64,000 nucleotides of DNA from Candidatus Babeliales bacterium (GCA_050179755.1 JBFXEV010000001.1:677940-741939), one strand, 5' to 3'. Shown: positions 37,762-51,360, counted from the stretch's first letter. Notes: generated by a model not told the origin, from the sequence alone. Program-made: numbers and translations.

Positions 37762-38682
37762 TTACTGTTCATGTTTTTCAAGTAATTGTGCAATATCAGT
37801 ATGGCCTGCTTCTTGTGCAAACATGCGCGGTGTTTGGCCTTTGTTATCGTTTGTGTAAACATCTGAGCCATGCGCCAAAAGTAATTCCACAATCTCTCTG
37901 TTTCCTCCATACGATGCATAATGGAGTGGAATTCTACCGAATTTATCTTTTATATTTACCTGAGCACCATGAGCTATAAGCAATTGTGGGGTTTCTAAAT
38001 TATATTGAATATGTAACGCCGTTCGGTTAAGGTCATCTTGAGCATTCACTTTCGCACCATGAGTCAGTAGTAGTTCAGTGATTTCTACATTTCTTGCACC
38101 ATGCAATGCTCTCCTGCCATCAACGTCTTTTGCGTTCACGTCAGCGCCATGGATCAATAGTAGTTTAACTATATCTTTCCAGAAGAGGTGGGGTGAATGA
38201 GTGTGTAAGGCTGTTTTGCCATCCATATCTTTTGCATTTACATCTGCGTTATGTGCTATCAAGAAAGCAGCCATTGGTGGAGTGAATGCGTAATGGAGTG
38301 CTGTTTTGCCACGATTATCTTTGGCATTTATATCTGCACCATGCTCTAGTAATAATTTAATGATGTTAGGGTGCCATGCCAGGTGAATTGCTGCATTTCC
38401 GTCATCATTTTTTATATTCACATTTGCACCGTGCGCTAATAATACTTTAATGAGTGATGTTTTCTCACTGCTACCCCATAATAATGAAGGATTCTTTAAA
38501 GCTTTTTTTAATAGTTCAGTTGCATCAGCACCAGCAGCTAACTTTTTCTTGATGATGAATATTTTTACTTTGTTAATGATAGTAACAATATAGTGCTGAA
38601 TGCGCGTCCATATATGTCTTGCAAAGATTATACCACCAACCAAAAGAATAAATCCTATCAAATAAATTAATGCGTTCTTCAT
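37762..38682 (-). CDS. Membrane-anchored ankyrin-repeat protein
   Basis: ATG 38682 has AAGGTG upstream; the track start is GTG. TM segment ALIYLIGFILLVGGIIFA. Six or more ANK units (GKTALHYA..LIAHNADVNAKD etc.). Confidence 0.85.
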   Translation of the reverse strand: MKNALIYLIGFILLVGGIIFARHIWTRIQHYIVTIINKVKIFIIKKKLAAGADATELLKKALKNPSLLWGSSEKTSLIKVLLAHGANVNIKNDDGNAAIHLAWHPNIIKLLLEHGADINAKDNRGKTALHYAFTPPMAAFLIAHNADVNAKDMDGKTALHTHSPHLFWKDIVKLLLIHGADVNAKDVDGRRALHGARNVEITELLLTHGAKVNAQDDLNRTALHIQYNLETPQLLIAHGAQVNIKDKFGRIPLHYASYGGNREIVELLLAHGSDVYTNDNKGQTPRMFAQEAGHTDIAQLLEKHEQ

Positions 38683-38884
38683 ATACACCTTGCATGAGAT
38701 ATTTGGTTTCTTATTTCTGTTCTTATCAAATACTTGGCATGTTATATTGGCAGAAGATGTATTTTGTTATTTGGTTATTGTTACCCGTATAGCTTGCCCT
38801 TTTTTAGTTTTTTTATCGCAAGCCCGTGAGTGAACATCGCTTGCGGTATGAATAAAGAGTTGTTGTATTCATGAGTTATTACGA

Positions 38885-39322: not shown

Positions 39323-39976
39323 TTAATTTGCTGCGTTAAGATCACCTTTAAGAGTTGTTCCAAAGAAATTAGGTATCTGGTATGTTCCATCATTTTGAAC
39401 ATTGATTTTTAAGTTACCAAAATCTTTTTTGAGCGGTGTGTAAATAGTCAAAGTTTCAGTCCATTGTTTTGCACGAGGGCCTTTTGCATATACTTTGATA
39501 GCTGTATGTCTTTTTGGATCAGCTGCTTTTGCATCTGTGGCTTCTTGTGCTACTTTTGCAGGCGTTCCTTCGGGGAACGATTCATCAAGACTAAATACGT
39601 AAAATAATATTTTATACGGTTCGTTTGGATACGGCCCTTTAGAGAAAGTTATTGCATACAATTTTTTGCCAACATTGGGAACAGGTAATATAATTTCTTT
39701 ATTCTCAGTGATGGTGCGAAAATTTGTAATATTCTTTTGTGCTTCGAGAGTATTATAATCTTCTCTATCACCAGCAGAACCCATTACTTTTGAGGCTGAG
39801 TGTCCTTTTGCTGTTATAACTTGCTTGCAACCAGTTGCGCCTTCGCCGCAAATTATCTGAACTGATTCTATATCTTCTTTTTTAATCTCAACTTGGTTAC
39901 TGTCTTGTTTTGCAAAACTCATCTGTATGAGAGCCAAGCAAGCAAGAGCGGCAAGGGTTGTTATTTTATTGTTCAT
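39323..39976 (-). CDS. Family A secreted protein (A1)
   Basis: AAGGAG precedes ATG 39976 (MNNKITTLAALACLALIQMSFA). GKKLYAITFSKGPYPNEPYKILFYVFSLDESFPEG aligns with A2-A5. Confidence 0.7.
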   Translation of the reverse strand: MNNKITTLAALACLALIQMSFAKQDSNQVEIKKEDIESVQIICGEGATGCKQVITAKGHSASKVMGSAGDREDYNTLEAQKNITNFRTITENKEIILPVPNVGKKLYAITFSKGPYPNEPYKILFYVFSLDESFPEGTPAKVAQEATDAKAADPKRHTAIKVYAKGPRAKQWTETLTIYTPLKKDFGNLKINVQNDGTYQIPNFFGTTLKGDLNAAN

Positions 39977-40103
39977 GAGAACTCCTTTTTTATTTAGTGG
40001 CATATTGTATCATAGTGATAAAGATTATCTATGTACAGATAAGGCCTAATATCTATCTTCTATCCTCATTGTAACAAAATTTGCCTCTGGAAATCAAGGG
40101 TTT

Positions 40104-40532
40104 TTAAGGTATTGCTTGGTCAAATATAAGCCCATTGGGGCCGTCCCCTACAATAAGATTAATGGCGTTACAATTTTGCCTGGTCCAAAAAGAGCTTATT
40201 TTGCCAGCTCCCGTACCGGTAAGCTTTTGTATTTTGATTTTGCGTGGGCAAAATGGAAAATTGGTGGTTCCTGATTCACCCTTGCCATAATATAATATGG
40301 TAGATGCTTCAAAGCCTTGCTGTATTCTATCATTCGCTTCTTGTTTGATTCTATCTAGTATTATGTCTGCAAAGGGATTTAGGCTTGAAATGCCACCAAG
40401 TGCTTGCTGTGATAATGCATCAAGTGATAATTGTATTTGGCCGTCTGTATTATTTTGCACATTAAGCGTGAGTGCTTCTATGCGTGTATACAATGCATTA
40501 CTGATTGTAAGAATTAGTATTATTTTTTTCAT
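40104..40532 (-). CDS. Family B small secreted two-Cys protein (B2)
   Basis: Leader MKKIILILTISNALYTRIEA. LNVQNNTDGQIQLSL; NFPFCPRKIKIQKLTGTGAGKISSFWTRQNCNAINLIV. Confidence 0.7.
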   Translation of the reverse strand: MKKIILILTISNALYTRIEALTLNVQNNTDGQIQLSLDALSQQALGGISSLNPFADIILDRIKQEANDRIQQGFEASTILYYGKGESGTTNFPFCPRKIKIQKLTGTGAGKISSFWTRQNCNAINLIVGDGPNGLIFDQAIP

Positions 40533-40542
40533 ATCTATCCCC

Positions 40543-41160
40543 CTATGTTATGGTATTTAAATCGTAAGTAATTGGCGCAGGTCTTACTAAGTTACCTGTG
40601 GTATCAGTATATGGTTGTGGATAATAAAATAATTTTGCTTCAGAATCAACAGTAATAAGTGGTTTAAGTGCGGTAATAGGTTTTTCATTAAATGAAGTTA
40701 ACAGGTATGTCCATTGATTTTGCTCTGGCAATTTATAATAAACTTTTAACACGCTTTTAATTTCTGGATGTTTTGTTTTTATATCAGCAATTTCTTGTGA
40801 GAATTTTGCATCTGATAACTCTGCAGGGATGTTATTAATATTAAATGCATAAAATAACAATTTAATTTGTTGATTGGCATACTGTTTTTTGGTTGGGGTG
40901 AAAGCTATTATTTTTTGCCCCGAAGCTGGCAATGTTAATTCTGTTTCTTTTGTTGTTTTAATGGTACTTAAATTTTGTACATCAATGTTGATCTCTTTTG
41001 GTGAGAATTTATCGCTTGCACTTCCAATAGTCACATCGCCTGCCACGCAATCTCCTTGTGCTCCTACGCAAAAGAGTATTTCTTTGCGAACGGCAAAACA
41101 AAAAGAGCAATTAAATACGGTGATAATGATAATTGCAAAAGATTGAAAAGTGTGCTTCAT
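40543..41160 (-). CDS. Family A secreted protein (A2)
   Basis: AAGGAAA precedes the ATG. GQKIIAFTPTKKQYANQQIKLLFYAFNINNIPAE...LKVYYKLPEQNQWTYLLTSF. Confidence 0.7.
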   Translation of the reverse strand: MKHTFQSFAIIIITVFNCSFCFAVRKEILFCVGAQGDCVAGDVTIGSASDKFSPKEINIDVQNLSTIKTTKETELTLPASGQKIIAFTPTKKQYANQQIKLLFYAFNINNIPAELSDAKFSQEIADIKTKHPEIKSVLKVYYKLPEQNQWTYLLTSFNEKPITALKPLITVDSEAKLFYYPQPYTDTTGNLVRPAPITYDLNTIT

Positions 41161-41691: not shown

Positions 41692-41722
41692 AAAGCCGCT
41701 CAGTCTAGTGATGAGCGGCTTT
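41692..41722 (-). terminator. Strong hairpin after the esterase-domain gene (putative terminator, weak U-tract)
   Basis: 11-bp stem aaagccgctca/tgagcggcttt with a 9-nt loop, 16 nt downstream of the stop at 41738. Confidence 0.5.
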
Positions 41723-41737
41723 ACTTATCAAACTCTA

Positions 41738-44170
41738 TTAGGCAGAAGGATTAGGAATTACTTCACATGGTTCAAGATCATATACACTAATTAATTCGCG
41801 TGTATCACCAAATGTTTCCACCCAAGCACCAATGGCACCTAAATCTAAAATCTTTGGTATATCAAGTTGCTGGCCTAATTCAAATGGTATATCGCTTGTG
41901 CGCACAATGGTGGTACTGTTTTCAATAATATCTAAATACACAAGACGCAGTTCATCTTCTACCGTTGCAATGGCAGCTGATTTGGTACCTTGATCAGCAT
42001 ATACTTGTGCGCCAATAAAGGTACTAAAATCTATTAAGCTGCTGGTGGTAATTTCATAGATAGGGTCAGTGCCACGATCTTCCAATTGTTTTGCTGATGC
42101 CAAAACGTTTCTAAATGATTTATTAAAATAAAATCCTGTAGAAGCCATTTCTTCTTTATAGAAAAAGTCATCAGTGCTTGTAGCAGTGTCAATAAAATTG
42201 ACAGGGCTTGTAGTGCGAATGCCGCCTGGTTCAAGAATTCCAGCTTGGTCAATATTAACCGGTTGCATGCGCCAATTATCAGGAAGCGTTGCAAGGTTGG
42301 CGCCTCCCAGCACGTTGCCAGTTGGAAAGTTAACTCTAAATGTATAATTATCGGCAGGCCCGAGCGCAAATACAGCAGCAGCATCTTCAAGGCCTGAGGC
42401 AATTTGATTATGCTCAAATACACCTTCTTGAATATCAAGTGTTATTTGCGTCAGATTACGCAAACCGCTCATTCCTTGATAGTTAGAACTATCAGGTGGC
42501 ACGATTGGTTGCCCTAGAAGGCCTGCACCAATGCCAAAAAAGCCTTGTCTTCCAATTTTAAATAATGCACCCGGCCCATTGATAATAATAGACGCTTGAA
42601 CACTGTTATCATTAAGCGAAGGATCTGCAAAGGCTCGTGCTTTGCTATATAAATTACCAATTTGAAAGCCACCGCCAGCTCTTGTCTCATCACCAATAAG
42701 TACTTTACCATTATCAAGTATTTGTAAATTTATATTGGTAGCTTCTACTTCTGGAGGCAGCGTTTCTATGCCAAGTAATGTTCCTTTTTCAACAAATAAT
42801 TGCGCATTTTCTTCAATAATAATGGTACCCGTGCCTATTATTTTAGATCGTACCACGTTAGGGTCTTCTCCATTTTGAGAAAATACGGCAGATAGCATTT
42901 GGAATACTGTTCTGTTGCGTGAACAATTTTCATTAACAATGCAATCTGTGTGTTTGCCATTATAAAGAAGATATTCATGATCTACTTGTTCGTTTGCAAG
43001 TTTTACCGAGAGCATGCGGGCGCCACGCGCATTAATGAGTTCTAAATTACCACCATCAAGAAAAAATGCTTGATGTTGTAACGTTTCAATAACATCTGGA
43101 TCGTTTGATACGAACCAAGGATCTTTTTCTCGCCAACGCTCAATAGCAGTTTGACTTAATACTAATGACACGGGAAATGTTATTGGTGTCCCGGGGATTT
43201 CTGTGCTGGCACCAATAAAAGGCCCCGGAGTAAATACCGGCGTGCCATCACCATTTACCTGGAAAGGAAGATCCACAAAGTAGGTATTTACGAATGGGTT
43301 TACAAATTCACCTCGAATAGCAGCTAAGTTTGGGCTAAGTGCACCTGATAATGAAAAAAGTAAAAAGGTATTAGGGCCATTGGTGGGAGCAATTCTGCCA
43401 GTATCTGGGCCCGAAGTTGGTATTTCTGGTTGCACAAGACTGTTTAGTGAAAATAGCGCCCCATCAAGAATGCCTGCAGTATTTGTATGTGCAAGATCGG
43501 TTGTTGCAATAGCCCAGAGCGGCGTGCCGCTTTCAGAGCCAAATCCAATAAATTTATCTGGGTGATTCATGGCCAGTAATGTAGAGCCATAGCCGCCCAT
43601 TGATTGGCCTGCAAGCGCTCGATACGCTCTATCTGCTTTTGTGCGGAAATTTGCATCAATAAAATTGACGGTATCTTCCACCAAAAAATCTTCAAAAAGT
43701 CCTGGCATTCTATTTACGCCATTTAATTCCGAATTAACATACCATGCTGAGGCATAGTTTCTCAAGCCATCTGGAGTTACACCATTAATTAAGCTCGCAT
43801 CAACCGATACTACAATGATAGGCGTAATTAATTTATTGTTAATTAAATCATCTAACACCAATTTATCGCCGCATACAAAAAAAGTATGATCACCTTCAAA
43901 GCCGGGCAAATAATAAACGACCGGGTAACGTTCTGTGCTTGTCTCATATCCTCTTGGTAGATAGACAATTGCCAAACGAACATTATCTCCTTCGGGTGCC
44001 AAAGGTGATGGTGGAACTTTGTCTAACGTGGGTATACCAACAAGCACTAGTAACCCCCCATTGCCAGGGTTGTTTATATCACCGCAAATGTTGGGGTCTA
44101 TTGGATATATTATTGCATGAAGATGCGTTGTCATCAGTAGGGCAAGCAAAAAAGTTATGATGTATTTCAT
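41738..44170 (-). CDS. Secreted esterase-domain protein (putative-esterase / esterase D-like fold) with a roughly 400-aa beta-rich C-terminal extension
   Basis: Leader MKYIITFLLALLMTTHLHA. VRLAIVYLPRGYETSTERYPVVYYLPGFEGDH. Nucleophile elbow AGQSMGGYGS (Ser codon at 43603..43601). The C-terminal half is Gly/Asn/Ile-rich and repeat-like. Confidence 0.7.
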   Translation of the reverse strand: MKYIITFLLALLMTTHLHAIIYPIDPNICGDINNPGNGGLLVLVGIPTLDKVPPSPLAPEGDNVRLAIVYLPRGYETSTERYPVVYYLPGFEGDHTFFVCGDKLVLDDLINNKLITPIIVVSVDASLINGVTPDGLRNYASAWYVNSELNGVNRMPGLFEDFLVEDTVNFIDANFRTKADRAYRALAGQSMGGYGSTLLAMNHPDKFIGFGSESGTPLWAIATTDLAHTNTAGILDGALFSLNSLVQPEIPTSGPDTGRIAPTNGPNTFLLFSLSGALSPNLAAIRGEFVNPFVNTYFVDLPFQVNGDGTPVFTPGPFIGASTEIPGTPITFPVSLVLSQTAIERWREKDPWFVSNDPDVIETLQHQAFFLDGGNLELINARGARMLSVKLANEQVDHEYLLYNGKHTDCIVNENCSRNRTVFQMLSAVFSQNGEDPNVVRSKIIGTGTIIIEENAQLFVEKGTLLGIETLPPEVEATNINLQILDNGKVLIGDETRAGGGFQIGNLYSKARAFADPSLNDNSVQASIIINGPGALFKIGRQGFFGIGAGLLGQPIVPPDSSNYQGMSGLRNLTQITLDIQEGVFEHNQIASGLEDAAAVFALGPADNYTFRVNFPTGNVLGGANLATLPDNWRMQPVNIDQAGILEPGGIRTTSPVNFIDTATSTDDFFYKEEMASTGFYFNKSFRNVLASAKQLEDRGTDPIYEITTSSLIDFSTFIGAQVYADQGTKSAAIATVEDELRLVYLDIIENSTTIVRTSDIPFELGQQLDIPKILDLGAIGAWVETFGDTRELISVYDLEPCEVIPNPSA

Positions 44171-44182
44171 TATGATCTCTTT

Positions 44183-45970
44183 TTATAGGAAAAACTCTAA
44201 GCCAATATACCAATCTGTATCTTGTGGTGTATTTTTACCACCAACCACGCCGCCAACGCTTGCAAAAATGCCAGCAGTAATGCAATCAAATTCATGCCGT
44301 AAACATATTTCACCGTAGAGTTTATGCGTGGTAACGTCTGTGTTAATTCTTAGATTGTTAGCATTAAGCAAGTTGGTGCCCGTTGGTATGCATGTGCACG
44401 CATTTGATTGTAAGCTAATAGAATCTCGTGATTTGATATACAGTTCATAACCAAAACGCATAAGGGCATAATCCTTGCAGGTGATAGGGCGTGCAATAGA
44501 AGCTTCTGCGTGGCCTAAGAAATAGTGCCAATTTACGTTGGCAGGAACGCCTGATCCAATGTTTTTGATCGTTGCTCCTTGCAGCGGTAATGCCACATTT
44601 TCTGCGCGTTTAAGTACTACAGAAAAGAGGGCATCTGCTTGTAGCAATAACCAATCATAATCATGCCAATAGGTTCGCGTGCCAATCATAATTTCTGGGT
44701 GTCCGTTATTGCCAAGTGATTGCAATGCGATCAGGCCTGGAGCCACTTGTGCGCCGGCCGTTGGTAAGCGCAATGCAACATTACCTTCTACAAAAGAACA
44801 CTGATTCCACCAATATTGGGTGAAAAACTGTGCATCAATATCACCAAGCCCGCCATGACTTCGCGAATTAAAATTAATGCCAGCTCTTTCAAAAAATGCA
44901 TTAATTTGTGTGGCTGGTGATCCGATTAAAAGATCAACGCGTTTTTTGATTATGCACGCGGGATCAACCAATTTAGTGACCGTGGGCGTTGATATAAAGG
45001 TTGGTTCAATCCACAATTGCTCCCGAATTTCTTCTTGTTCAGGAGTATTGGCGCCAAGTTCACCATAAGGTGTTGTGATGAGAAAGCGTGCGCGCCCGCC
45101 GATGGGCACAGGACTACCACTGCCTGGTAAGCCATCAAACGATTGTGCTTGGTCTATTGGTTGCGCAAAAGGGGGAGTTGGTGCAGTGCCCAAAGGTGGT
45201 TTAAAAACAGTAACTGGGTTTTGGCGTATTTGATTGAGCGTATTAAAGTTATTGGTGACATCAACATTTGCAATAGTTATAGGATATGTCACTGGATTTG
45301 CTGGTGGATTGCCTTTGAATCCTGTATCTACATAATCAACTAGCCGCACCATGAGGCCTGGAGGTGACCAGCTTTCAGGTAATTGATGCAAAAATTGTAA
45401 ACGATATGCAAATGTTTCCACCGGTGTGCTGTTAGTGCCTAAAAACTCTACTTGTTCGCGTACGTTAGCATCAAGAATTGCAGGGTCAATTTGGTTATTA
45501 ACAATCGGGCCTTGCGTTAAGCGCATGTTAAAATTGCGAAAGGGGATAGTTACACGGCCACCAACAACCACGTTGCAGCGCACCGCATGAGAACTTACTA
45601 ATCCAAGCACTACGCCGCGATCGGTATAGGTATAACGGGGTGAGAGTAGAGTTGAAAAAAGAATATTAATAGGTGACGTGGTTTGCGTTGCAAAAATATC
45701 ATTTACTGGAAAATCTGCTCTGTTAAATAATAATGCGGATAACGGGCTTTTATGTGTATCAGTAGTTTCAACATTAAGTGCGGTATCACATTTGCGCTGA
45801 TAATAACCTGCCCATGCATAAAATTGTGCTTGTTCACATAGAGGATTAAGTGGTTCAGTGTGCAGCCAATAACGTAATAAAGGAATGGGTGTTCTAAATT
45901 CACGCGCAGTAAGTGTTGTGCTTATGCATGTGGCAATTACTAAACTGTATATAAGATAGTTGTGCTTCAT
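44183..45970 (-). CDS. Putative outer-membrane beta-barrel protein (family not assignable)
   Basis: Leader MKHNYLIYSLVIATCISTTLTA. No hydrophobic helices. Aromatic/Gly-rich amphipathic segments. Aromatic C-terminus DWYIGLEFFL. Gaps of 12-15 nt to the flanking genes. Confidence 0.45.
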   Translation of the reverse strand: MKHNYLIYSLVIATCISTTLTAREFRTPIPLLRYWLHTEPLNPLCEQAQFYAWAGYYQRKCDTALNVETTDTHKSPLSALLFNRADFPVNDIFATQTTSPINILFSTLLSPRYTYTDRGVVLGLVSSHAVRCNVVVGGRVTIPFRNFNMRLTQGPIVNNQIDPAILDANVREQVEFLGTNSTPVETFAYRLQFLHQLPESWSPPGLMVRLVDYVDTGFKGNPPANPVTYPITIANVDVTNNFNTLNQIRQNPVTVFKPPLGTAPTPPFAQPIDQAQSFDGLPGSGSPVPIGGRARFLITTPYGELGANTPEQEEIREQLWIEPTFISTPTVTKLVDPACIIKKRVDLLIGSPATQINAFFERAGINFNSRSHGGLGDIDAQFFTQYWWNQCSFVEGNVALRLPTAGAQVAPGLIALQSLGNNGHPEIMIGTRTYWHDYDWLLLQADALFSVVLKRAENVALPLQGATIKNIGSGVPANVNWHYFLGHAEASIARPITCKDYALMRFGYELYIKSRDSISLQSNACTCIPTGTNLLNANNLRINTDVTTHKLYGEICLRHEFDCITAGIFASVGGVVGGKNTPQDTDWYIGLEFFL

Positions 45971-45985
45971 AATTTCTCTTTATGT

Positions 45986-46411
45986 TTAAGATTGCACGGG
46001 AATAAATAGGCTGTTGCCACTCATACGCAGAATTGGTTGTAAATCAGGAAATTGTAAAATAGCTCCCGGCAGAACTTGTAGTTGGGCATTACCATTAAAT
46101 GTGATATTGAGCCCAATTATCCAACGTGCCGATGTGCTAACAATAAAAGCGCCGCTAGTACTTGATGTCAAAGTAACAACATCGGTTTGCAGATCAAACC
46201 CTGGCCCTGCTTCAATGAGCAAGCACCCGATAGTATCGGTAATAACTATATCTTCATCAAGAATAATGGTACTGGTTTCATTAGGGCGAAATGGATTATC
46301 GCACGAATAGAGTTGATTAAATTCGCTTGCAGTTATAATAACACTAAGTGATTGGGTGCAATAAAGCGATAGTGCAATACATGTTGCACTCAAAAGGTAA
46401 TTGTTCATCAT
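45986..46411 (-). CDS. Small secreted beta-rich protein, first gene of the OMP/esterase operon (D)
   Basis: Leader MMNNYLLSATCIALSLYC. ITFNGNAQLQVLPGAILQF resembles IIEENAQLFVEKGTLLGIE in the esterase protein's C-terminal half. Confidence 0.6.
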   Translation of the reverse strand: MMNNYLLSATCIALSLYCTQSLSVIITASEFNQLYSCDNPFRPNETSTIILDEDIVITDTIGCLLIEAGPGFDLQTDVVTLTSSTSGAFIVSTSARWIIGLNITFNGNAQLQVLPGAILQFPDLQPILRMSGNSLFIPVQS

Positions 46412-46485
46412 ATGCTCTCTTTAAGTTATATATAAAATTTATATACAACTTAAGTTCAGCAGATGATGAACAACTTGTCAAGCGC
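46399..46485 (-). promoter_or_regulatory. Duplicated promoter/leader module, copy 1 (TTGACA-N17-TGcTGAACT plus start-codon-occluding inverted repeat)
   Basis: The 87-bp block is alignable to 51275-51360, and its distal 36 bp match that copy at 35 positions. -35 at 46476-46481, -10 at 46453-46458. Arms at 46462-46476 and 46399-46413. Confidence 0.6.
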
Positions 46486-47110: not shown

Positions 47111-47704
47111 TTAATCCTTGCCAAGTTCAGCAGTAAGCGGTGTAGTACCAATTTTTGGTGTTGAACTATCCTTTATTGCTTTTTGGAATGCAGGCAATGT
47201 TGCTACTACTTTGCCGTTACCGGTAAGTACAAGCTTTATAGCGCCTGGTTCTTGTAAATCAGCTGGCGTATCAATAGAAACCATTTGGTCTACTGAAGTC
47301 CACATAGTTTCATTTGGCTTTTGCACAAATATGCCCACTATTGTTTTGCCCTGATCACCAATATTTGGATCATTTTTAGCTTTTTTAATAGCAGCAAGTA
47401 AGTTTGCTGGCGCATCAGTGGGCAATGGTTGAGCGAGATCGAGCATGTAGAATAAGCCTTTAACTTTTTTGCCCGTGTATCTACCTTGTGTTGGGATTAT
47501 TTCAATTATTTTTTTACCGCTTGTTGGTAGTGCAATGGTAGCAATCACTTGTTTATTAATAATGCCATAATCTTCTGCCTGAATATCGGTAGTATCAATA
47601 GTTGCTTTTGCGGATTTAATGGGGCCAAGATCTAAGTTCATTGCAAAACTAAATTGAGAGATCAAGCAACTGAACAGTGTGCTTATGAGTAAGTTATTTT
47701 TCAT
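47111..47704 (-). CDS. Family A secreted protein (A3)
   Basis: AAGGAA precedes the ATG. GKKIIEIIPTQGRYTGKKVKGLFYMLDLAQPLPTDAPANLLAAIKKAKNDP. Confidence 0.7.
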   Translation of the reverse strand: MKNNLLISTLFSCLISQFSFAMNLDLGPIKSAKATIDTTDIQAEDYGIINKQVIATIALPTSGKKIIEIIPTQGRYTGKKVKGLFYMLDLAQPLPTDAPANLLAAIKKAKNDPNIGDQGKTIVGIFVQKPNETMWTSVDQMVSIDTPADLQEPGAIKLVLTGNGKVVATLPAFQKAIKDSSTPKIGTTPLTAELGKD

Positions 47705-47731
47705 GATAGAGTTCCTTTTTTATTCATATTT

Positions 47732-48370
47732 TTAAAATGCTTTAGCCAAATCAGTAGTCATAACGCTAGCAGGAACAGTGTTTCCTTGCCCATCTTTATG
47801 TGCTGGTGAATAAATTTTTGCGCGTCCATCGGGAAATATCTCAGTAGCAATAGGCTTCATTTTATTAAAGGGGTCATCACTGAAAGAAGCAATGAGTTCA
47901 GCCCATTGTTTGCCAGTCGAACGATATACTTTTAACATAGTAACCGCCCAAGGGTATTCCTTTTTACCGTCAATAGCTTCTTGATAGATGTTTGGATTTG
48001 ATAATCCTTTAGGCATGTTATCAAGCTCAAATGCATTAAATAAAATTTTAATTTGTTGTTCTTTAAGTCGACCTTCAGTGGGTGTGAAAGTAACTATTTT
48101 TTTGCCACCTGCAGTCATGTCTATATCGACTTGGCGTTTTGCAGTAATGCGACCTAATGGTTGTACTTTTACACCTGTAGTAGTAAAGGTTAGTAAGTCG
48201 CCAGCTTTACCAACTGTAGCCGATTTTACTACAACATCGCCTACTGAACAATTTTCAATTTCCCCTTGGCAGATGTTGGCAGTTTTACTGTTATCGTCTT
48301 GTTTGGGCAAGGTCATGTTTGTAGTAAGTGCCAGCCCTATAACCGTTAATGTTATAATATAGTTTTTCAT
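47732..48370 (-). CDS. Family A secreted protein (A4)
   Basis: GGKKIVTFTPTEGRLKEQQIKILFNAFELDNMPKG...LKVYRSTGKQWAELIASF. Confidence 0.7.
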   Translation of the reverse strand: MKNYIITLTVIGLALTTNMTLPKQDDNSKTANICQGEIENCSVGDVVVKSATVGKAGDLLTFTTTGVKVQPLGRITAKRQVDIDMTAGGKKIVTFTPTEGRLKEQQIKILFNAFELDNMPKGLSNPNIYQEAIDGKKEYPWAVTMLKVYRSTGKQWAELIASFSDDPFNKMKPIATEIFPDGRAKIYSPAHKDGQGNTVPASVMTTDLAKAF

Positions 48371-48419
48371 GGTACTATCCCTTAATTAATCTAAATTTTT
48401 CATTATTCTTTCCACCTTC

Positions 48420-48449
48420 AGCATAGCATTTTTATTGACTATTAAGCAA
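48420..48449 (-). promoter_or_regulatory. Sigma70-type promoter for A4 (TTGCTT-N18-TATGCT)
   Basis: The minus strand reads TTGCTTaatagtcaataaaaatgcTATGCT. Homologous to the B3 and A5 promoters. Confidence 0.55.
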
Positions 48450-48455
48450 TAGTTT

Positions 48456-48496
48456 AAAAAAACATACTGCCCCAAGTGATTTCTCTCTTGGGGCAG
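48456..48496 (-). terminator. Rho-independent terminator after A5
   Basis: 10-bp stem ctgccccaag/cttggggcag, followed on the minus strand by U7. Confidence 0.8.
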
Positions 48497-48522
48497 TGTT
48501 ATAAACTACGTTTTGATTAAGA

Positions 48523-49230
48523 TTACTGTGCTGTTTTAGGGAGTTTTTGAATCTCATCAAGTGTCATACCAAGTTCAAGTTGAAGTGGTGGAGCACTTAC
48601 TTTTTTGGTTGTGCCATCTGTTTGTGGCGCAAGGAACGATGGAAGATATGCAATTACTTTACCACCTGGTTGAATTACAAGTCTGATACCTTTACCTTGT
48701 GCTAAATCTTGAGGCGTATCACTACTTCCGTCAACATAGAATGGCGTCCAAAGGCCTTGTTCATCAGGTCCTTGGCGGAACGCACCAGTTACTGTCTTTA
48801 AATCAGCAAAGTTAATTTTTGGATTTGCTTTAGCTTTTTCTATTGCTTCTTTCATAATAGAAGGAGCATCTGCCGGCAACGGCTGGCTTAAATCAATTGT
48901 ATATAACGCTGCTTTGATTTGTTGGTTGGCATAGCTGCCTGTAGTTGGCGTAAATGAAAATATTTTTTTACCGGTTGCAGGAATAGCGATTGTTTTTTGA
49001 GTCATTCTGGTAATAACGCCAAATGATTCAACGGGAACGCCTACTGTGTTGAGCGCTTCAGGTTGGAACGCACCACCCATAGTAATATCACCAGTTATAC
49101 AACCACCAACTACGTAACCTACGCAGTTAAGAATTGTTTTTACGGTTGTATCACGCCCTGAAGCGTAACCTAACTGTGAAAACGTTAAGCAACCTACGAT
49201 TGCTAACATGATTGAAGTTTTGTTATTCAT
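48523..49230 (-). CDS. Family A secreted protein (A5), possible lipoprotein
   Basis: MNNKTSIMLAIVGC contains a lipobox-like IVGC. GKKIFSFTPTTGSYANQQIKAALYTIDLSQPLPADAPSIMKEAIEKAKANP. Confidence 0.7.
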   Translation of the reverse strand: MNNKTSIMLAIVGCLTFSQLGYASGRDTTVKTILNCVGYVVGGCITGDITMGGAFQPEALNTVGVPVESFGVITRMTQKTIAIPATGKKIFSFTPTTGSYANQQIKAALYTIDLSQPLPADAPSIMKEAIEKAKANPKINFADLKTVTGAFRQGPDEQGLWTPFYVDGSSDTPQDLAQGKGIRLVIQPGGKVIAYLPSFLAPQTDGTTKKVSAPPLQLELGMTLDEIQKLPKTAQ

Positions 49231-49498: not shown

Positions 49499-49891
49499 AT
49501 GATGAAAAAACGTATAATTGCGCTAGCATTGTTAGTGGCGAGTATTTCTGGTTCACAAATGATCGCTATACAGATAAAAAATAATCTTAGGTATGGTGTT
49601 GCGGTGAGTGACGCTGATGGTGCCCGAATAGCAAATATTTGCACCATGGACACGGTAAATTGTGAAATTAGAGGTAAAGTTACACGATCTGGCGTTGAGC
49701 TTACCCGTGATCAAATGCGCGTGCGTCTCAATGTAAATGGTATTGATATTTATCCTGGTGAAACCAAAGAAGTGGGTTTTTGGGGTGATGGTTCAAGATT
49801 AACTGCATATTATGATACTACCGTGTTGCAATTTACAGCGCCAGTGCAAAATTCTTTAGAGTTCCCACGCGATTTTAAATTAGCCAGATAA
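49499..49891 (+). CDS. Family B-like small secreted protein (B4, divergent)
   Basis: Leader MMKKRIIALALLVASISGSQMIA. IQIKNNLRYGVAVS start strand. Two Cys (ICTMDTVNC). Confidence 0.6.
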   Translation: MMKKRIIALALLVASISGSQMIAIQIKNNLRYGVAVSDADGARIANICTMDTVNCEIRGKVTRSGVELTRDQMRVRLNVNGIDIYPGETKEVGFWGDGSRLTAYYDTTVLQFTAPVQNSLEFPRDFKLAR

Positions 49892-51244
49892 ATTAATTTC
49901 ATTTCCTGACGTATCAAAATATTTGGCATAGGCATACGAAATATAGAGTATATTGCGTTGCCACTGCACGGCTTTAAATCGAGCTGAAAGACACATTAAT
50001 TTGGGGATATTGGAATTTTTGCACCATATATCATTGGTTATTGCAAGTATGGTTGACCCTTTTTCATACCTATCGTCTGGCTTATCATTAAAAAAAAGTT
50101 CCGAACAAATATACGGTATAAATGAAACTCCTTCAAGAATATGGAGCATTGGTCGCTCATTTGTGGATGGAGTTATGCCCGGATAAGTACTGAAAAATAA
50201 CTTTTCAAACAATTTAAAATTATAAATTTCTGGCAATGCTTCAGTAAGGAGCATTGCATGCCGCTTATCAAAGATTTCTTTTAATTTCCCATTAAAAAAC
50301 CAATGTAACGTGTTGCGGTAAGAAGGGCCATCCCAGCGAAATGAGCCAAGTACAATATGTAGTGGCCGCAGCAAATCTTCTTCTGACCACATTGCGCAAA
50401 GATCAGGGTCTTTGCTTAAATGATCACAAAAAATGGATGACTCAGGCATAATAATAAGCTTGGCATCAGGTTGTAATACCGCTACATGGAAGAATAATTC
50501 TTGCGCCAATTTTGCTTGTTTTGTTAAATCAACTTGGCTTGAAAGTTTGCTTGGCAGGTAGGCTATTTCTTTGAGCCATGCCGGTTTTATCATCGGTGCG
50601 AGCGGAATTACCAAACTAATAAGCCAGGGGGCTGCGAATGCTATCACCCAAAAAAAAGCATAGAGAGATTTTCTTATATACAAGTAAACGAGTGATCCTG
50701 AAAAACTTATAAGTAATAAGATAAGTATTGTTTTGCCAAGATAAGGCAAAAGTGCAAGTAAGCGCGGTTCCTCTGCAAGAACAAGTACGGGATTAAAGAA
50801 AAAATGCCCTTCACAGCGCCCAAAGAGTATAAAGCAATAATGTTCCATAAAAAGAATAAAAAGTGTGTACGTACTAACCCATAAAAAGAGTCGCTGCCCT
50901 ACGCTGCGTAATGAAAAAAAGTTAATTATGGTATTATTGAGCAAAAACCAGCATGCCGCATAAAAAGCAGCGGTGGAGATGAGTACTAATGCGGGAGCAA
51001 GGCGTGCAAGAATTGAGCCTTTTGCAAAGTTATCAATACCTGTAATAACGCCAGCCAGGTGAAGAGTGAAGGTAATAATTCCCCATAGAAAACCACGTTT
51101 AAACGAGAGATTGTTATATACTGCTATATATAAAAGGGGTGCAGCGAAAATAAAAACCAAGGGCCAAAAATAGCTACTCAAAAGTAATGGCAGCGCATAG
51201 CAAATTGCAGAAAGAATAAAGAGTAGCCAATGAGCGAGTATCAT
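49880..51244 (-). CDS. lnt: Apolipoprotein N-acyltransferase
   Basis: Polytopic N-terminal half, then a CN-hydrolase triad context: IIMPESS (Glu), FDKRHAMLLTEALP (Lys), IPYICSELFF (Cys). Confidence 0.8.
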   Translation of the reverse strand: MILAHWLLFILSAICYALPLLLSSYFWPLVFIFAAPLLYIAVYNNLSFKRGFLWGIITFTLHLAGVITGIDNFAKGSILARLAPALVLISTAAFYAACWFLLNNTIINFFSLRSVGQRLFLWVSTYTLFILFMEHYCFILFGRCEGHFFFNPVLVLAEEPRLLALLPYLGKTILILLLISFSGSLVYLYIRKSLYAFFWVIAFAAPWLISLVIPLAPMIKPAWLKEIAYLPSKLSSQVDLTKQAKLAQELFFHVAVLQPDAKLIIMPESSIFCDHLSKDPDLCAMWSEEDLLRPLHIVLGSFRWDGPSYRNTLHWFFNGKLKEIFDKRHAMLLTEALPEIYNFKLFEKLFFSTYPGITPSTNERPMLHILEGVSFIPYICSELFFNDKPDDRYEKGSTILAITNDIWCKNSNIPKLMCLSARFKAVQWQRNILYISYAYAKYFDTSGNEINLSG

Positions 51245-51291: not shown

Positions 51292-51360
51292 GCTTTCCTT
51301 ACAATATACAAATAAGTATATATTTTAAGTTCAGCAGACGATGAACAACTTGTCAAGCGC
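51275..51360 (-). promoter_or_regulatory. Duplicated promoter/leader module, copy 2
   Basis: -35 TTGACA at 51351-51356 and -10 TGcTGAACT at 51328-51333. 15-bp inverted-repeat arms at 51337-51351 and 51275-51289, with one G-U pair. Confidence 0.6.

Follow-up and report, generated by a model that had tools for sequence, protein, structure and literature searches.

In a 64,000-nucleotide (nt) stretch of DNA from a Candidatus Babeliales bacterium (GCA_050179755.1, JBFXEV010000001.1:677940-741939; the whole stretch is referred to below as the window), three head-to-tail genes on the minus strand encode a secreted protein of 141 amino acids (aa), a predicted outer-membrane β-barrel of 595 aa, and an 810-aa protein in which a predicted esterase is followed by a C-terminal domain that we call A2c. 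Comparison of this locus with related ones shows, at the level of sequence, that the barrel is evolutionarily locked to secreted proteins with a module made of A2c and a second domain, A3, the two lying in one chain or in two. The same comparison shows that A3 and A2c belong together as a module associated with the barrel and that their N-terminal cargo varies, being either the esterase or ~950 aa of uncharacterised sequence. As judged from sequence, the set of barrel and partners recurs across the Dependentiae (TM6), matches no described family, and displays a clean pattern of partner-domain fusion in cis or in trans. We tentatively read it as a system that exports its partners and anchors them at the cell surface, a view that is weighed below against its rivals.

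Two architectures of one barrel-partner set

Loci were collected by look-ups of barrel and esterase homologues and by a scan of GTDB species genomes (23 loci), and all of their open reading frames (ORFs) were scanned with four hidden Markov models built here, for the barrel, the esterase half, A2c, and A3. Nearly all of the GTDB-scan loci that have a taxonomic label are assigned to Babeliales, Dependentiae, or TM6. At ~15 loci, which we call type I (the window, L001, L002, L006-L011, L013, L014, L020, L029, L031, and the frameshifted L030), the order is an A3 protein of 127 to 213 aa, the barrel, and an esterase-A2c protein. Intergenic gaps range from -31 to +25 nt in the five type I loci with gene calls, and the more distant type I loci have barrels only ~27-33% identical to that of the window. 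At ~10 further loci, type II (L015, L017-L019, and L021-L026), a single protein of 1,300 to 1,500 aa, without the esterase, lies directly upstream of the barrel. Pfam searches revealed no recognisable enzyme domain in these large partners, whose N-terminal region of ~950 aa is uncharacterised. A3 and then A2c stand directly at the C terminus of the large protein in L015, L018, L021, and L023 and were detected there more weakly in L017 and L024; in L019, L022, L025, and L026, A2c alone was detected.

The relation between the two forms is made explicit by an intermediate locus, L004, which encodes a 982-aa protein ending in A3, the barrel, and then a 984-aa protein with esterase and A2c. The 1,448-aa protein of L017 runs collinear with the 982-aa protein of L004 and goes on into A2c, so that the split forms are broken precisely at the A3-A2c boundary. 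In a neighbour-joining tree, built without bootstrap, the barrels cluster by partner architecture, with all type II barrels and that of L004 grouped together, apart from type I. Both types can also be found in one organism: in the complete 1.87-Mb Babeliales genome OY970310.1, a type I locus (L006) and a type II locus (L017) lie ~0.8 Mb apart. Their barrels are 56% and 30% identical, respectively, to the window's barrel, and the presence of such distant barrels in a single genome therefore points to old, coexisting paralogous systems.

Every divergent esterase-A2c protein that was checked had A3 and the barrel upstream, and the barrel was a separate gene in every locus (~25, from independent assemblies) and in every database match seen. 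The window's barrel is 100% identical to a hypothetical protein from a Candidatus Babeliales metagenome-assembled genome, which places its bearer in the Dependentiae. A word-indexed search returned only 14 relatives of the barrel, while a profile search of 1.84 billion representatives returned 471 clusters at 50% identity, 337 of them with E values of <=1e-30. Among the best 150 of these 471 clusters, most of which matched over their full length, no protein exceeded 712 aa, and no fused partner-barrel protein was present. These results bear on an earlier reading of the window, made by inspection and called here the sequence-only reading, which had treated the barrel and the passenger-like proteins as one set and had described the arrangement as split. 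The first idea is confirmed by the order kept across loci and by the fusion of partner domains elsewhere. The second holds insofar as barrel and partners are encoded by separate genes; however, because the barrel is separate in every locus and match seen, this is the family's normal state and not a recent fission.

Four loci call for separate comment. In L004, a fourth gene follows the esterase gene (12743-14245, plus strand) and encodes a 500-aa signal-peptide protein that ends in SLAYSF and has no Pfam match; from its sequence, it looks like a second outer-membrane barrel. The contig of L004 and L016 (CAYTCH010000001.1; 1.08 Mb) carries a Dependentiae-type barrel locus under the label "uncultured Pseudomonadota," which is probably a taxonomic mis-assignment. 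L028 (4920-7088 of CAWJBS010000116.1, labelled Bryobacterales) has A2c-like and barrel fragments among ORFs unlike Dependentiae genes, and could represent a chimera produced by binning, a horizontal transfer that has since degraded, or a distant homologue from beyond the Dependentiae. L030 (4405-7932) has its barrel and esterase genes split over several frames, as either pseudogenes or long-read assembly frameshifts.

The barrel and its partner domains

The 595-aa product of gene 2 (44183-45970, minus strand) was modelled by AlphaFold2 with 12 long strands (pLDDT 78.9, pTM 0.69), and all of the significant Foldseek matches of this model in the PDB are outer-membrane barrels. FapF (5o67) is the top match (E = 1.8e-8; template modelling [TM] score, 0.63-0.68), and the highest TM score of all, 0.76, belongs to the COG4313 channel 4rl8. 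The autotransporter barrels EspP (3slj and 2qom) and EstA (3kvn) match with E values of 2e-5 to 1e-4; FadL is significant with TM scores of 0.35-0.38, and TodX is also among the matches. The model predicts a 12-stranded barrel of the FapF/COG4313/autotransporter-barrel fold class, in agreement with the earlier suggestion that the middle protein is an outer-membrane barrel. The C terminus reads GLEFFL, most relatives end in F, and hydrophobicity alternates in most strands. Sequence comparison was silent: neither the single protein nor a 14-member profile matched Pfam, NCBIfam, or PDB sequences, and none of the 14 homologues matched any Pfam family at E values of <=10, the PF03797, Omp85, POTRA, and FadL/COG4313 models included.

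In the barrel model, short turns of 3 to 6 aa (131-133, 388-392, 436-441, 496-499, and 561-564) alternate with long loops. As a rule, outer-membrane proteins keep their short turns in the periplasm and their long loops outside, and turn lengths here would place the loops at aa 62-111, 154-369, 403-425, 461-473, and 514-545 outside the cell. One of them is a mixed α/β insert of ~215 aa between strands 3 and 4 (aa 154-369; 44864-45511, minus strand), delimited with DSSP and modelled at a pLDDT of ~80-88; as the predicted extracellular loop 2, it is a candidate platform for docking. The insert is kept in both barrel lineages, where profile matches run the full length. The loop motifs GNNGHxE, KNxG, and GGKNTP, together with the insert and the segment that precedes strand 1, are conserved family-wide. 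Such conservation of surface loops is unusual for a barrel and suggests that they bind a conserved partner.

The mature barrel has only ~25 residues before strand 1 and no N-terminal domain in the model. This pre-strand segment (aa 23-47, REFRTPIPLLRYWLHTEPLNPLCEQ; 45830-45904, minus strand), which begins REFRTPIPLL, has invariant R23 and P28, and A22 (the residue just before it), E24, and R26 are at least 90% conserved. An (E/Q)FR(T/S)P-like motif recurs in the type II barrels of L022 (AEFRSP) and L025 (SQFRTP) and is degenerate in the orphan barrel of L012 (TLFTP). The segment has low confidence in the AlphaFold2 model; by analogy with FapF and COG4313 barrels (PMC5557850, PMC4493636), it is a candidate plug of the barrel lumen.

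The 810-aa product of gene 3 (41738-44170, minus strand), which has ~29 full-length homologues, was modelled with higher confidence (pLDDT 87.7, pTM 0.88). Its N-terminal half is an α/β-hydrolase esterase domain (aa ~40-430; 42881-44053, minus strand), of which residues 68-221 match PF00756 (E = 1.2e-19; 71.5 bits versus a cut-off of 22). Among PDB sequences, the closest solved relatives of this domain are the metagenomic esterase 8z91 and CE1 feruloyl esterases. Foldseek matched the 810-aa model to 8z91 with an E value of 4.7e-22, and a second HMMER segment to the same protein aligns Asp372 and His407 with its D.G and G.H motifs. In an alignment of the 29 full-length homologues, Ser190 of the GQSMGG motif and Asp372 never vary, and conservation of His407 is at least 90%; the corresponding codons were verified at 43601-43603, 43055-43057, and 42950-42952 of the minus strand. 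By sequence, the triad is complete and the domain is an ordinary PF00756 member and a predicted esterase, as the fold and the GQSMGG elbow had already led the sequence-only reading to propose.

A2c occupies aa 430-802 (41765-42883, minus strand), and its alignment spans type I and type II proteins. It is marked by the motifs GGxLQIGN, NGPGA..IG.QGFLG.G.G, QGxFxHNQIASG, and GGGN and ends in LI(S/R)VYDLxP. In the AlphaFold2 model, its N-terminal part is β-rich and solenoid-like, with many short strands, and its C-terminal part is α/β. A2c has no match in Pfam or among PDB sequences, and Pfam searches of the partners revealed no Pmp-type PF02415 match. The sequence-only reading had described this end of the protein as Gly/Asn/Ile-rich and repeat-like. 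The C-terminal ~380 aa are indeed rich in glycine (10%) and isoleucine (10%), followed by leucine (9%) and alanine (8%), but asparagine makes up only 6%, and the region is a conserved, confidently folded domain rather than a series of loose repeats.

The A3 domain (~100 aa) makes up nearly the whole of the 141-aa product of gene 1 (45986-46411, minus strand); its Cys37, Cys63, Trp97, and FxGNA motif are invariant. The protein has no Pfam, NCBIfam, or PDB match. All nine of its close homologues lie on contigs that also carry barrel homologues, and it is homologous to the C-terminal ~110 aa of the 982-aa protein of L004 (hhalign probability, 95%; E = 1.9e-8). A motif that had been thought to be shared by the 141-aa and 810-aa proteins (NAQLQVLPGAILQF versus NAQLFVEKGTLLGI, the latter at residues ~450-474) does not reflect significant homology: hhalign gave a probability of 3.6% (E = 0.012), and hmmsearch in both directions gave domain scores of 9 bits or less. 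On these results, we rejected it as evidence of homology and retain it as a rung-like resemblance only. Since the one motif closes A3 and the other opens A2c, which are contiguous when fused, they could be similar rungs of one solenoid-like A3-A2c unit.

Operon boundaries and neighbouring genes

The three minus-strand genes are separated by 15 nt (141/595) and 12 nt (595/810), and conserved homologues of each in many metagenome-assembled genomes indicate that all three are real. Each product starts with a leader, read directly from the sequence, that runs from a basic stretch through a hydrophobic core to a cleavage motif of small residues: MMNNYLLSATCIALSLYCTQSLS in the 141-aa protein, MKHNYLIYSLVIATCISTTLTA followed by REF in the 595-aa protein, and MKYIITFLLALLMTTHLHA followed by IIY in the 810-aa protein. 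We read all three leaders as Sec signal peptides, covering ~aa 1-23 of the 141-aa protein and aa 1-19 of the 810-aa protein. An AAAGAGA-type purine tract precedes the ATG at each internal junction; together with the spacing of 12-15 nt, these tracts support a single transcript, and the layout suggests that the three genes form one.

Upstream of gene 1 lies a 36-nt element, GCGCTTGACAAGTTGTTCATCATCTGCTGAACTTAA (46450-46485, minus strand), in which a 17-nt spacer separates TTGACA from TGAACT; its end lies ~38 nt short of the first ATG. The element recurs, with one mismatch, at 51325-51360 (minus strand), upstream of an lnt-like ORF (49880-51244, minus strand). The sequence across both copies is GCGCTTGACAAGTTGTTCATC[A/G]TCTGCTGAACTTAA, and these are its only two occurrences in the window; for its 20-nt core, 0.01 chance occurrences are expected. 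The element is likely to be a promoter or regulatory site of the operon, and it may be a shared promoter/operator that couples the barrel module to lipoprotein maturation. The lnt-like ORF itself has no Pfam match at E values of <=0.1, and its Lnt-like motifs (PES... and ICSELFF) were recognised by eye only.

On the other side, a stem-loop, AGCCGCTCA-N9-TGAGCGGCT (41694-41720, minus strand), begins 17 nt past the stop codon of gene 3. Its fold energy is -20.2 kcal/mol (z = -7.1), and none of 200 shuffles was equally stable. The hairpin is terminator-like, with a short U-tract (UUU), and probably marks the 3' end of the operon, where it may act as a terminator. A scan for consensus promoters and terminators gave counts near the shuffle expectation and missed this hairpin, which was found by reading the sequence. 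Taken together, the tight spacing, the promoter-like element upstream, and the hairpin of -20 kcal/mol downstream bear out the operon that the sequence-only reading had described, including its 15- and 12-nt gaps, the leader on each gene, and the putative promoter module shared with the lnt-like ORF.

The operon is flanked by secreted paralogous proteins of ~200 aa, of which the window encodes five (39323-41160 and 47111-49230, minus strand). They have no Pfam match. BLASTP located such paralogues in at least seven other genomes (L001, L002/L027, L006, L009, L010, L011, and L020), no more than 7 kb from a type I barrel locus, and near none of the 10 type II loci. These proteins could be additional clients of the barrel system or accessories to it, or just an abundant family. 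Just outside the gene island that holds the operon, an ankyrin-repeat protein with an N-terminal hydrophobic segment is encoded at 37762-38688 (minus strand); proteins of this type fit the host-interaction repertoire reported for Dependentiae (PMC6561590).

Export, anchoring, or uptake

Arguing by analogy, and giving it somewhat less than an even chance, we favour the view that the module is a FapF/autotransporter-like export-and-anchor system that is not itself a member of the type V family. The partners would reach the cell surface following Sec export, and A3 and A2c would assemble there, in cis or in trans, into one solenoid-like unit that docks onto the conserved extracellular loops and the insert of the barrel. 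A barrel with little periplasmic mass and a large conserved outer face makes docking of A3/A2c on that face the most economical model, and docking there would require the partners to be surface-exposed. Most likely, the barrel would also be the conduit, the partners passing through it unfolded and with the C-terminal module first; this step is modelled on the export of FapC by FapF and of passengers by autotransporter barrels. In the case of the window, the displayed or released cargo would be the esterase, acting on host-derived esters during intracellular life. Export through the barrel is favoured because of the FapF precedent, a stand-alone 12-stranded plugged barrel that exports unfolded operon partners and resembles autotransporter barrels (PMC5557850), and because the layout is autotransporter-like, with a conserved C-terminal module, a variable N terminus, and, in type II loci, a cargo gene that precedes the barrel.

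By function, the module most resembles FapF and the type Va autotransporters, yet it does not qualify as a member of either. FapF (5o65/5o67) is likewise a separately encoded 12-stranded barrel; a segment before its strand 1 plugs the lumen, a role for which the corresponding segment here, of low confidence in our model, is a candidate, and FapF exports polypeptides of its own operon after Sec transport (PMC5557850). However, FapF has a periplasmic coiled-coil trimerisation domain where the window's barrel has ~25 residues, lacks the ~215-aa loop insert, and belongs to a fapA-E operon with amyloid subunits and a FapD-type protease, whereas the partners here are an esterase and solenoid-like proteins, with no such protease. 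Pfam and PDB profile searches detected no sequence similarity between FapF and the 595-aa family. With type Va proteins such as EstA (3kvn) and EspP, the module has in common the 12-stranded barrel fold, reflected in the significant Foldseek matches, the joining of a conserved passenger module at the C terminus to an N-terminal cargo that varies, the position of the cargo ahead of the barrel (in type II loci), and, for EstA, an esterase as displayed cargo. The differences are that a type Va protein is a single polypeptide composed of signal peptide, passenger, linker helix, and barrel, while the window has separate genes with their own signal peptides, that the window's barrel has neither a PF03797 match nor a linker helix, and that its esterase gene lies after the barrel gene. 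In addition, EstA is a GDSL esterase, and the window's enzyme is a PF00756 α/β hydrolase.

Other relatives can be set aside more readily. Type Vb systems also have a transporter and a secreted partner in adjacent genes, and the type Vd protein PlpD has a lipolytic cargo, but both use 16-stranded Omp85 barrels with POTRA domains, and type Vb an N-terminal two-partner secretion (TPS) domain; the window's barrel is 12-stranded, and the conserved partner module is C-terminal. Membership of TPS/Omp85 or PlpD was rejected on the strand number and the lack of POTRA/Omp85 matches. Since POTRA/Omp85 features and PF03797 were looked for in Pfam and in the AlphaFold2 model and gave no match, the barrel is not of type Va, Vb, or Vd. 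The sequence-only reading, in which the operon was a possible split surface-display or secretion module, perhaps of a type-V-like arrangement, keeps its barrel, its intact esterase, its operon, and the functional linkage among them and loses its type V membership. Chlamydial Pmps are comparable in that they are large surface proteins, paralogous and solenoid-like, of bacteria with an obligate intracellular life, and in that each is associated with a 12-stranded barrel. They are, however, single-chain autotransporters with GGA(I/L/V)/FxxN repeats (PF02415), and membership was rejected because the partners have no PF02415 match. Slam/type XI systems (14 strands, tetratricopeptide repeats) were rejected in view of the lack of a lipobox Cys in the partner alignments and of a 12-stranded barrel with no N-terminal domain, and SusCD-like systems (22 strands, TonB-dependent) in view of the same missing lipobox Cys and strand number. 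Literature searches on Dependentiae autotransporters, a Babeliales esterase/barrel system, and 8z91 returned no description of this module.

Several observations weigh against the export-and-anchor reading. The best TM score of the barrel goes to a small-molecule channel (COG4313), and the barrel has neither the periplasmic coiled coil of FapF nor the linker helix of autotransporters. The 810-aa model is compact and well packed (pTM 0.88) and the type II partners are Cys-rich, both of which would be awkward for a 12-stranded pore. Dependentiae encode a type II secretion system that could export folded partners (PMC4776705). A2c gave only weak tail-fibre and CBM96 matches, and the L012 barrel has no recognisable partner nearby. 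The main rival reading is an enzyme-capped nutrient channel, a FadL/COG4313-type barrel for hydrophobic uptake over whose mouth A3/A2c would tether a protein for capture or hydrolysis; the esterase would then act on host lipids and deliver the fatty acids or other hydrophobic products that it frees directly to the channel. COG4313 barrels (Pput2725, 4rl8; SphA) are 12-stranded, have an N-terminal segment that occludes the lumen, and take up hydrophobic compounds such as sphingosine (PMC4493636); FadL channels, likewise for hydrophobic molecules and with an N-terminal segment in the lumen, fall in the same fold class. The window's barrel also has a strongly conserved pre-strand segment; COG4313 gives its highest TM score, with FadL and TodX among the other matches, and a link with a lipid-related enzyme can be imagined. 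The esterase partner is intact, and TM6/Dependentiae, which have no fatty-acid biosynthesis, have been proposed to exploit host lipids (PMC4776705). The barrel fold suits uptake as well as it suits export, and a docking site on the conserved loops and insert is equally compatible with this arrangement. On the other hand, ~10 related loci pair the barrel with proteins of 1,300-1,500 aa without a recognisable enzyme domain, the route of the partners to the surface is left unexplained, and by sequence the barrel falls outside the FadL/COG4313 Pfam families. COG4313 proteins are 270-320 aa long and have neither a large loop domain nor protein partners dedicated to them. The window's barrel, with its TM score of 0.76 and its conserved pre-strand segment, is twice as long because of the 215-aa insert, and its N-terminal segment is placed with low confidence in the model. 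FadL, with 14 strands, is a poor match. The esterase is nearest to feruloyl/carbohydrate esterases and esterase D and not to lipases, so that a lipid substrate is only a guess, and the partners, with no conserved lipobox Cys, are not lipoproteins, unlike SusD-type lids. We regard the channel as unlikely, though it is the strongest competitor.

The barrel could also be solely an anchor for a surface coat or adhesin layer whose proteins leave the cell by type II secretion or in vesicles. The core genes of TM6 genomes include those for type II secretion system components, with gspD in two copies (PMC4776705); folded export would suit the compact 810-aa fold and the Cys-rich giant partners, and the large conserved extracellular domain of the barrel is what an anchor might present. 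A plain anchor, however, would not need the conserved pre-strand segment or the lumen-side and loop motifs of the FapF/COG4313 type, and the strict one-to-one adjacency and overlapping reading frames are typical of dedicated transporter-substrate pairs; we consider this explanation quite improbable. Even less credit can be given to the notion that the genes are unrelated neighbours (a general porin, a periplasmic esterase, and a small periplasmic protein that are merely co-transcribed), the remains of a recently fissioned autotransporter, or an assembly artefact. Barrel, A3, and A2c have no annotated function, Pfam placing the esterase domain only, and one orphan barrel does exist (L012). Yet the order is kept over ~25 loci in independent assemblies, the partner domains that flank the barrel are fused in other loci, and barrels cluster by partner architecture; a recent fission is further contradicted by the best 150 of the 471 barrel representatives, all of <=712 aa and none fused to a partner. 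The comparative data largely refute both the neighbour and the fission versions, and the chance that any of the three holds is very small.

The export-and-anchor reading can be taken a step further. It is conceivable, though on balance doubtful, that the module represents a distinct, Dependentiae-confined class of export system, in which a stand-alone, plugged barrel of 12 strands with its own extracellular docking domain first translocates and then holds its partners, as a "non-covalent autotransporter." Partners of this class would be recognised through the bipartite C-terminal A3 + A2c module, presented in cis (in giant adhesin-like proteins) or in trans (by the 141-aa protein together with the esterase protein), and the class would sit between FapF and type V secretion.

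The Dependentiae, a widespread phylum, live as obligate parasites of protists, and experimental work on their biology is almost absent. Up to 44% of their proteins have signal peptides, yet type II secretion is the only dedicated outer-membrane export route described for them (PMC6561590, PMC4776705). The barrel alone, with its 471 clusters at 50% identity, defines a large family that has been without family-level annotation. If the barrel acts as an esterase-fed channel, the module would address how Dependentiae, as fatty-acid auxotrophs, harvest host lipids. If it exports or anchors its partners, the principle of FapF and type V secretion would extend to enzyme-bearing cargo with a gene of its own, the phylum's likely surface adhesins and enzymes would be identified, and a compact two-part display scaffold would be on offer. 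Should the "non-covalent autotransporter" prove to be a class of its own, it would be the main route by which these unculturable parasites place enzymes and adhesins on their surface.

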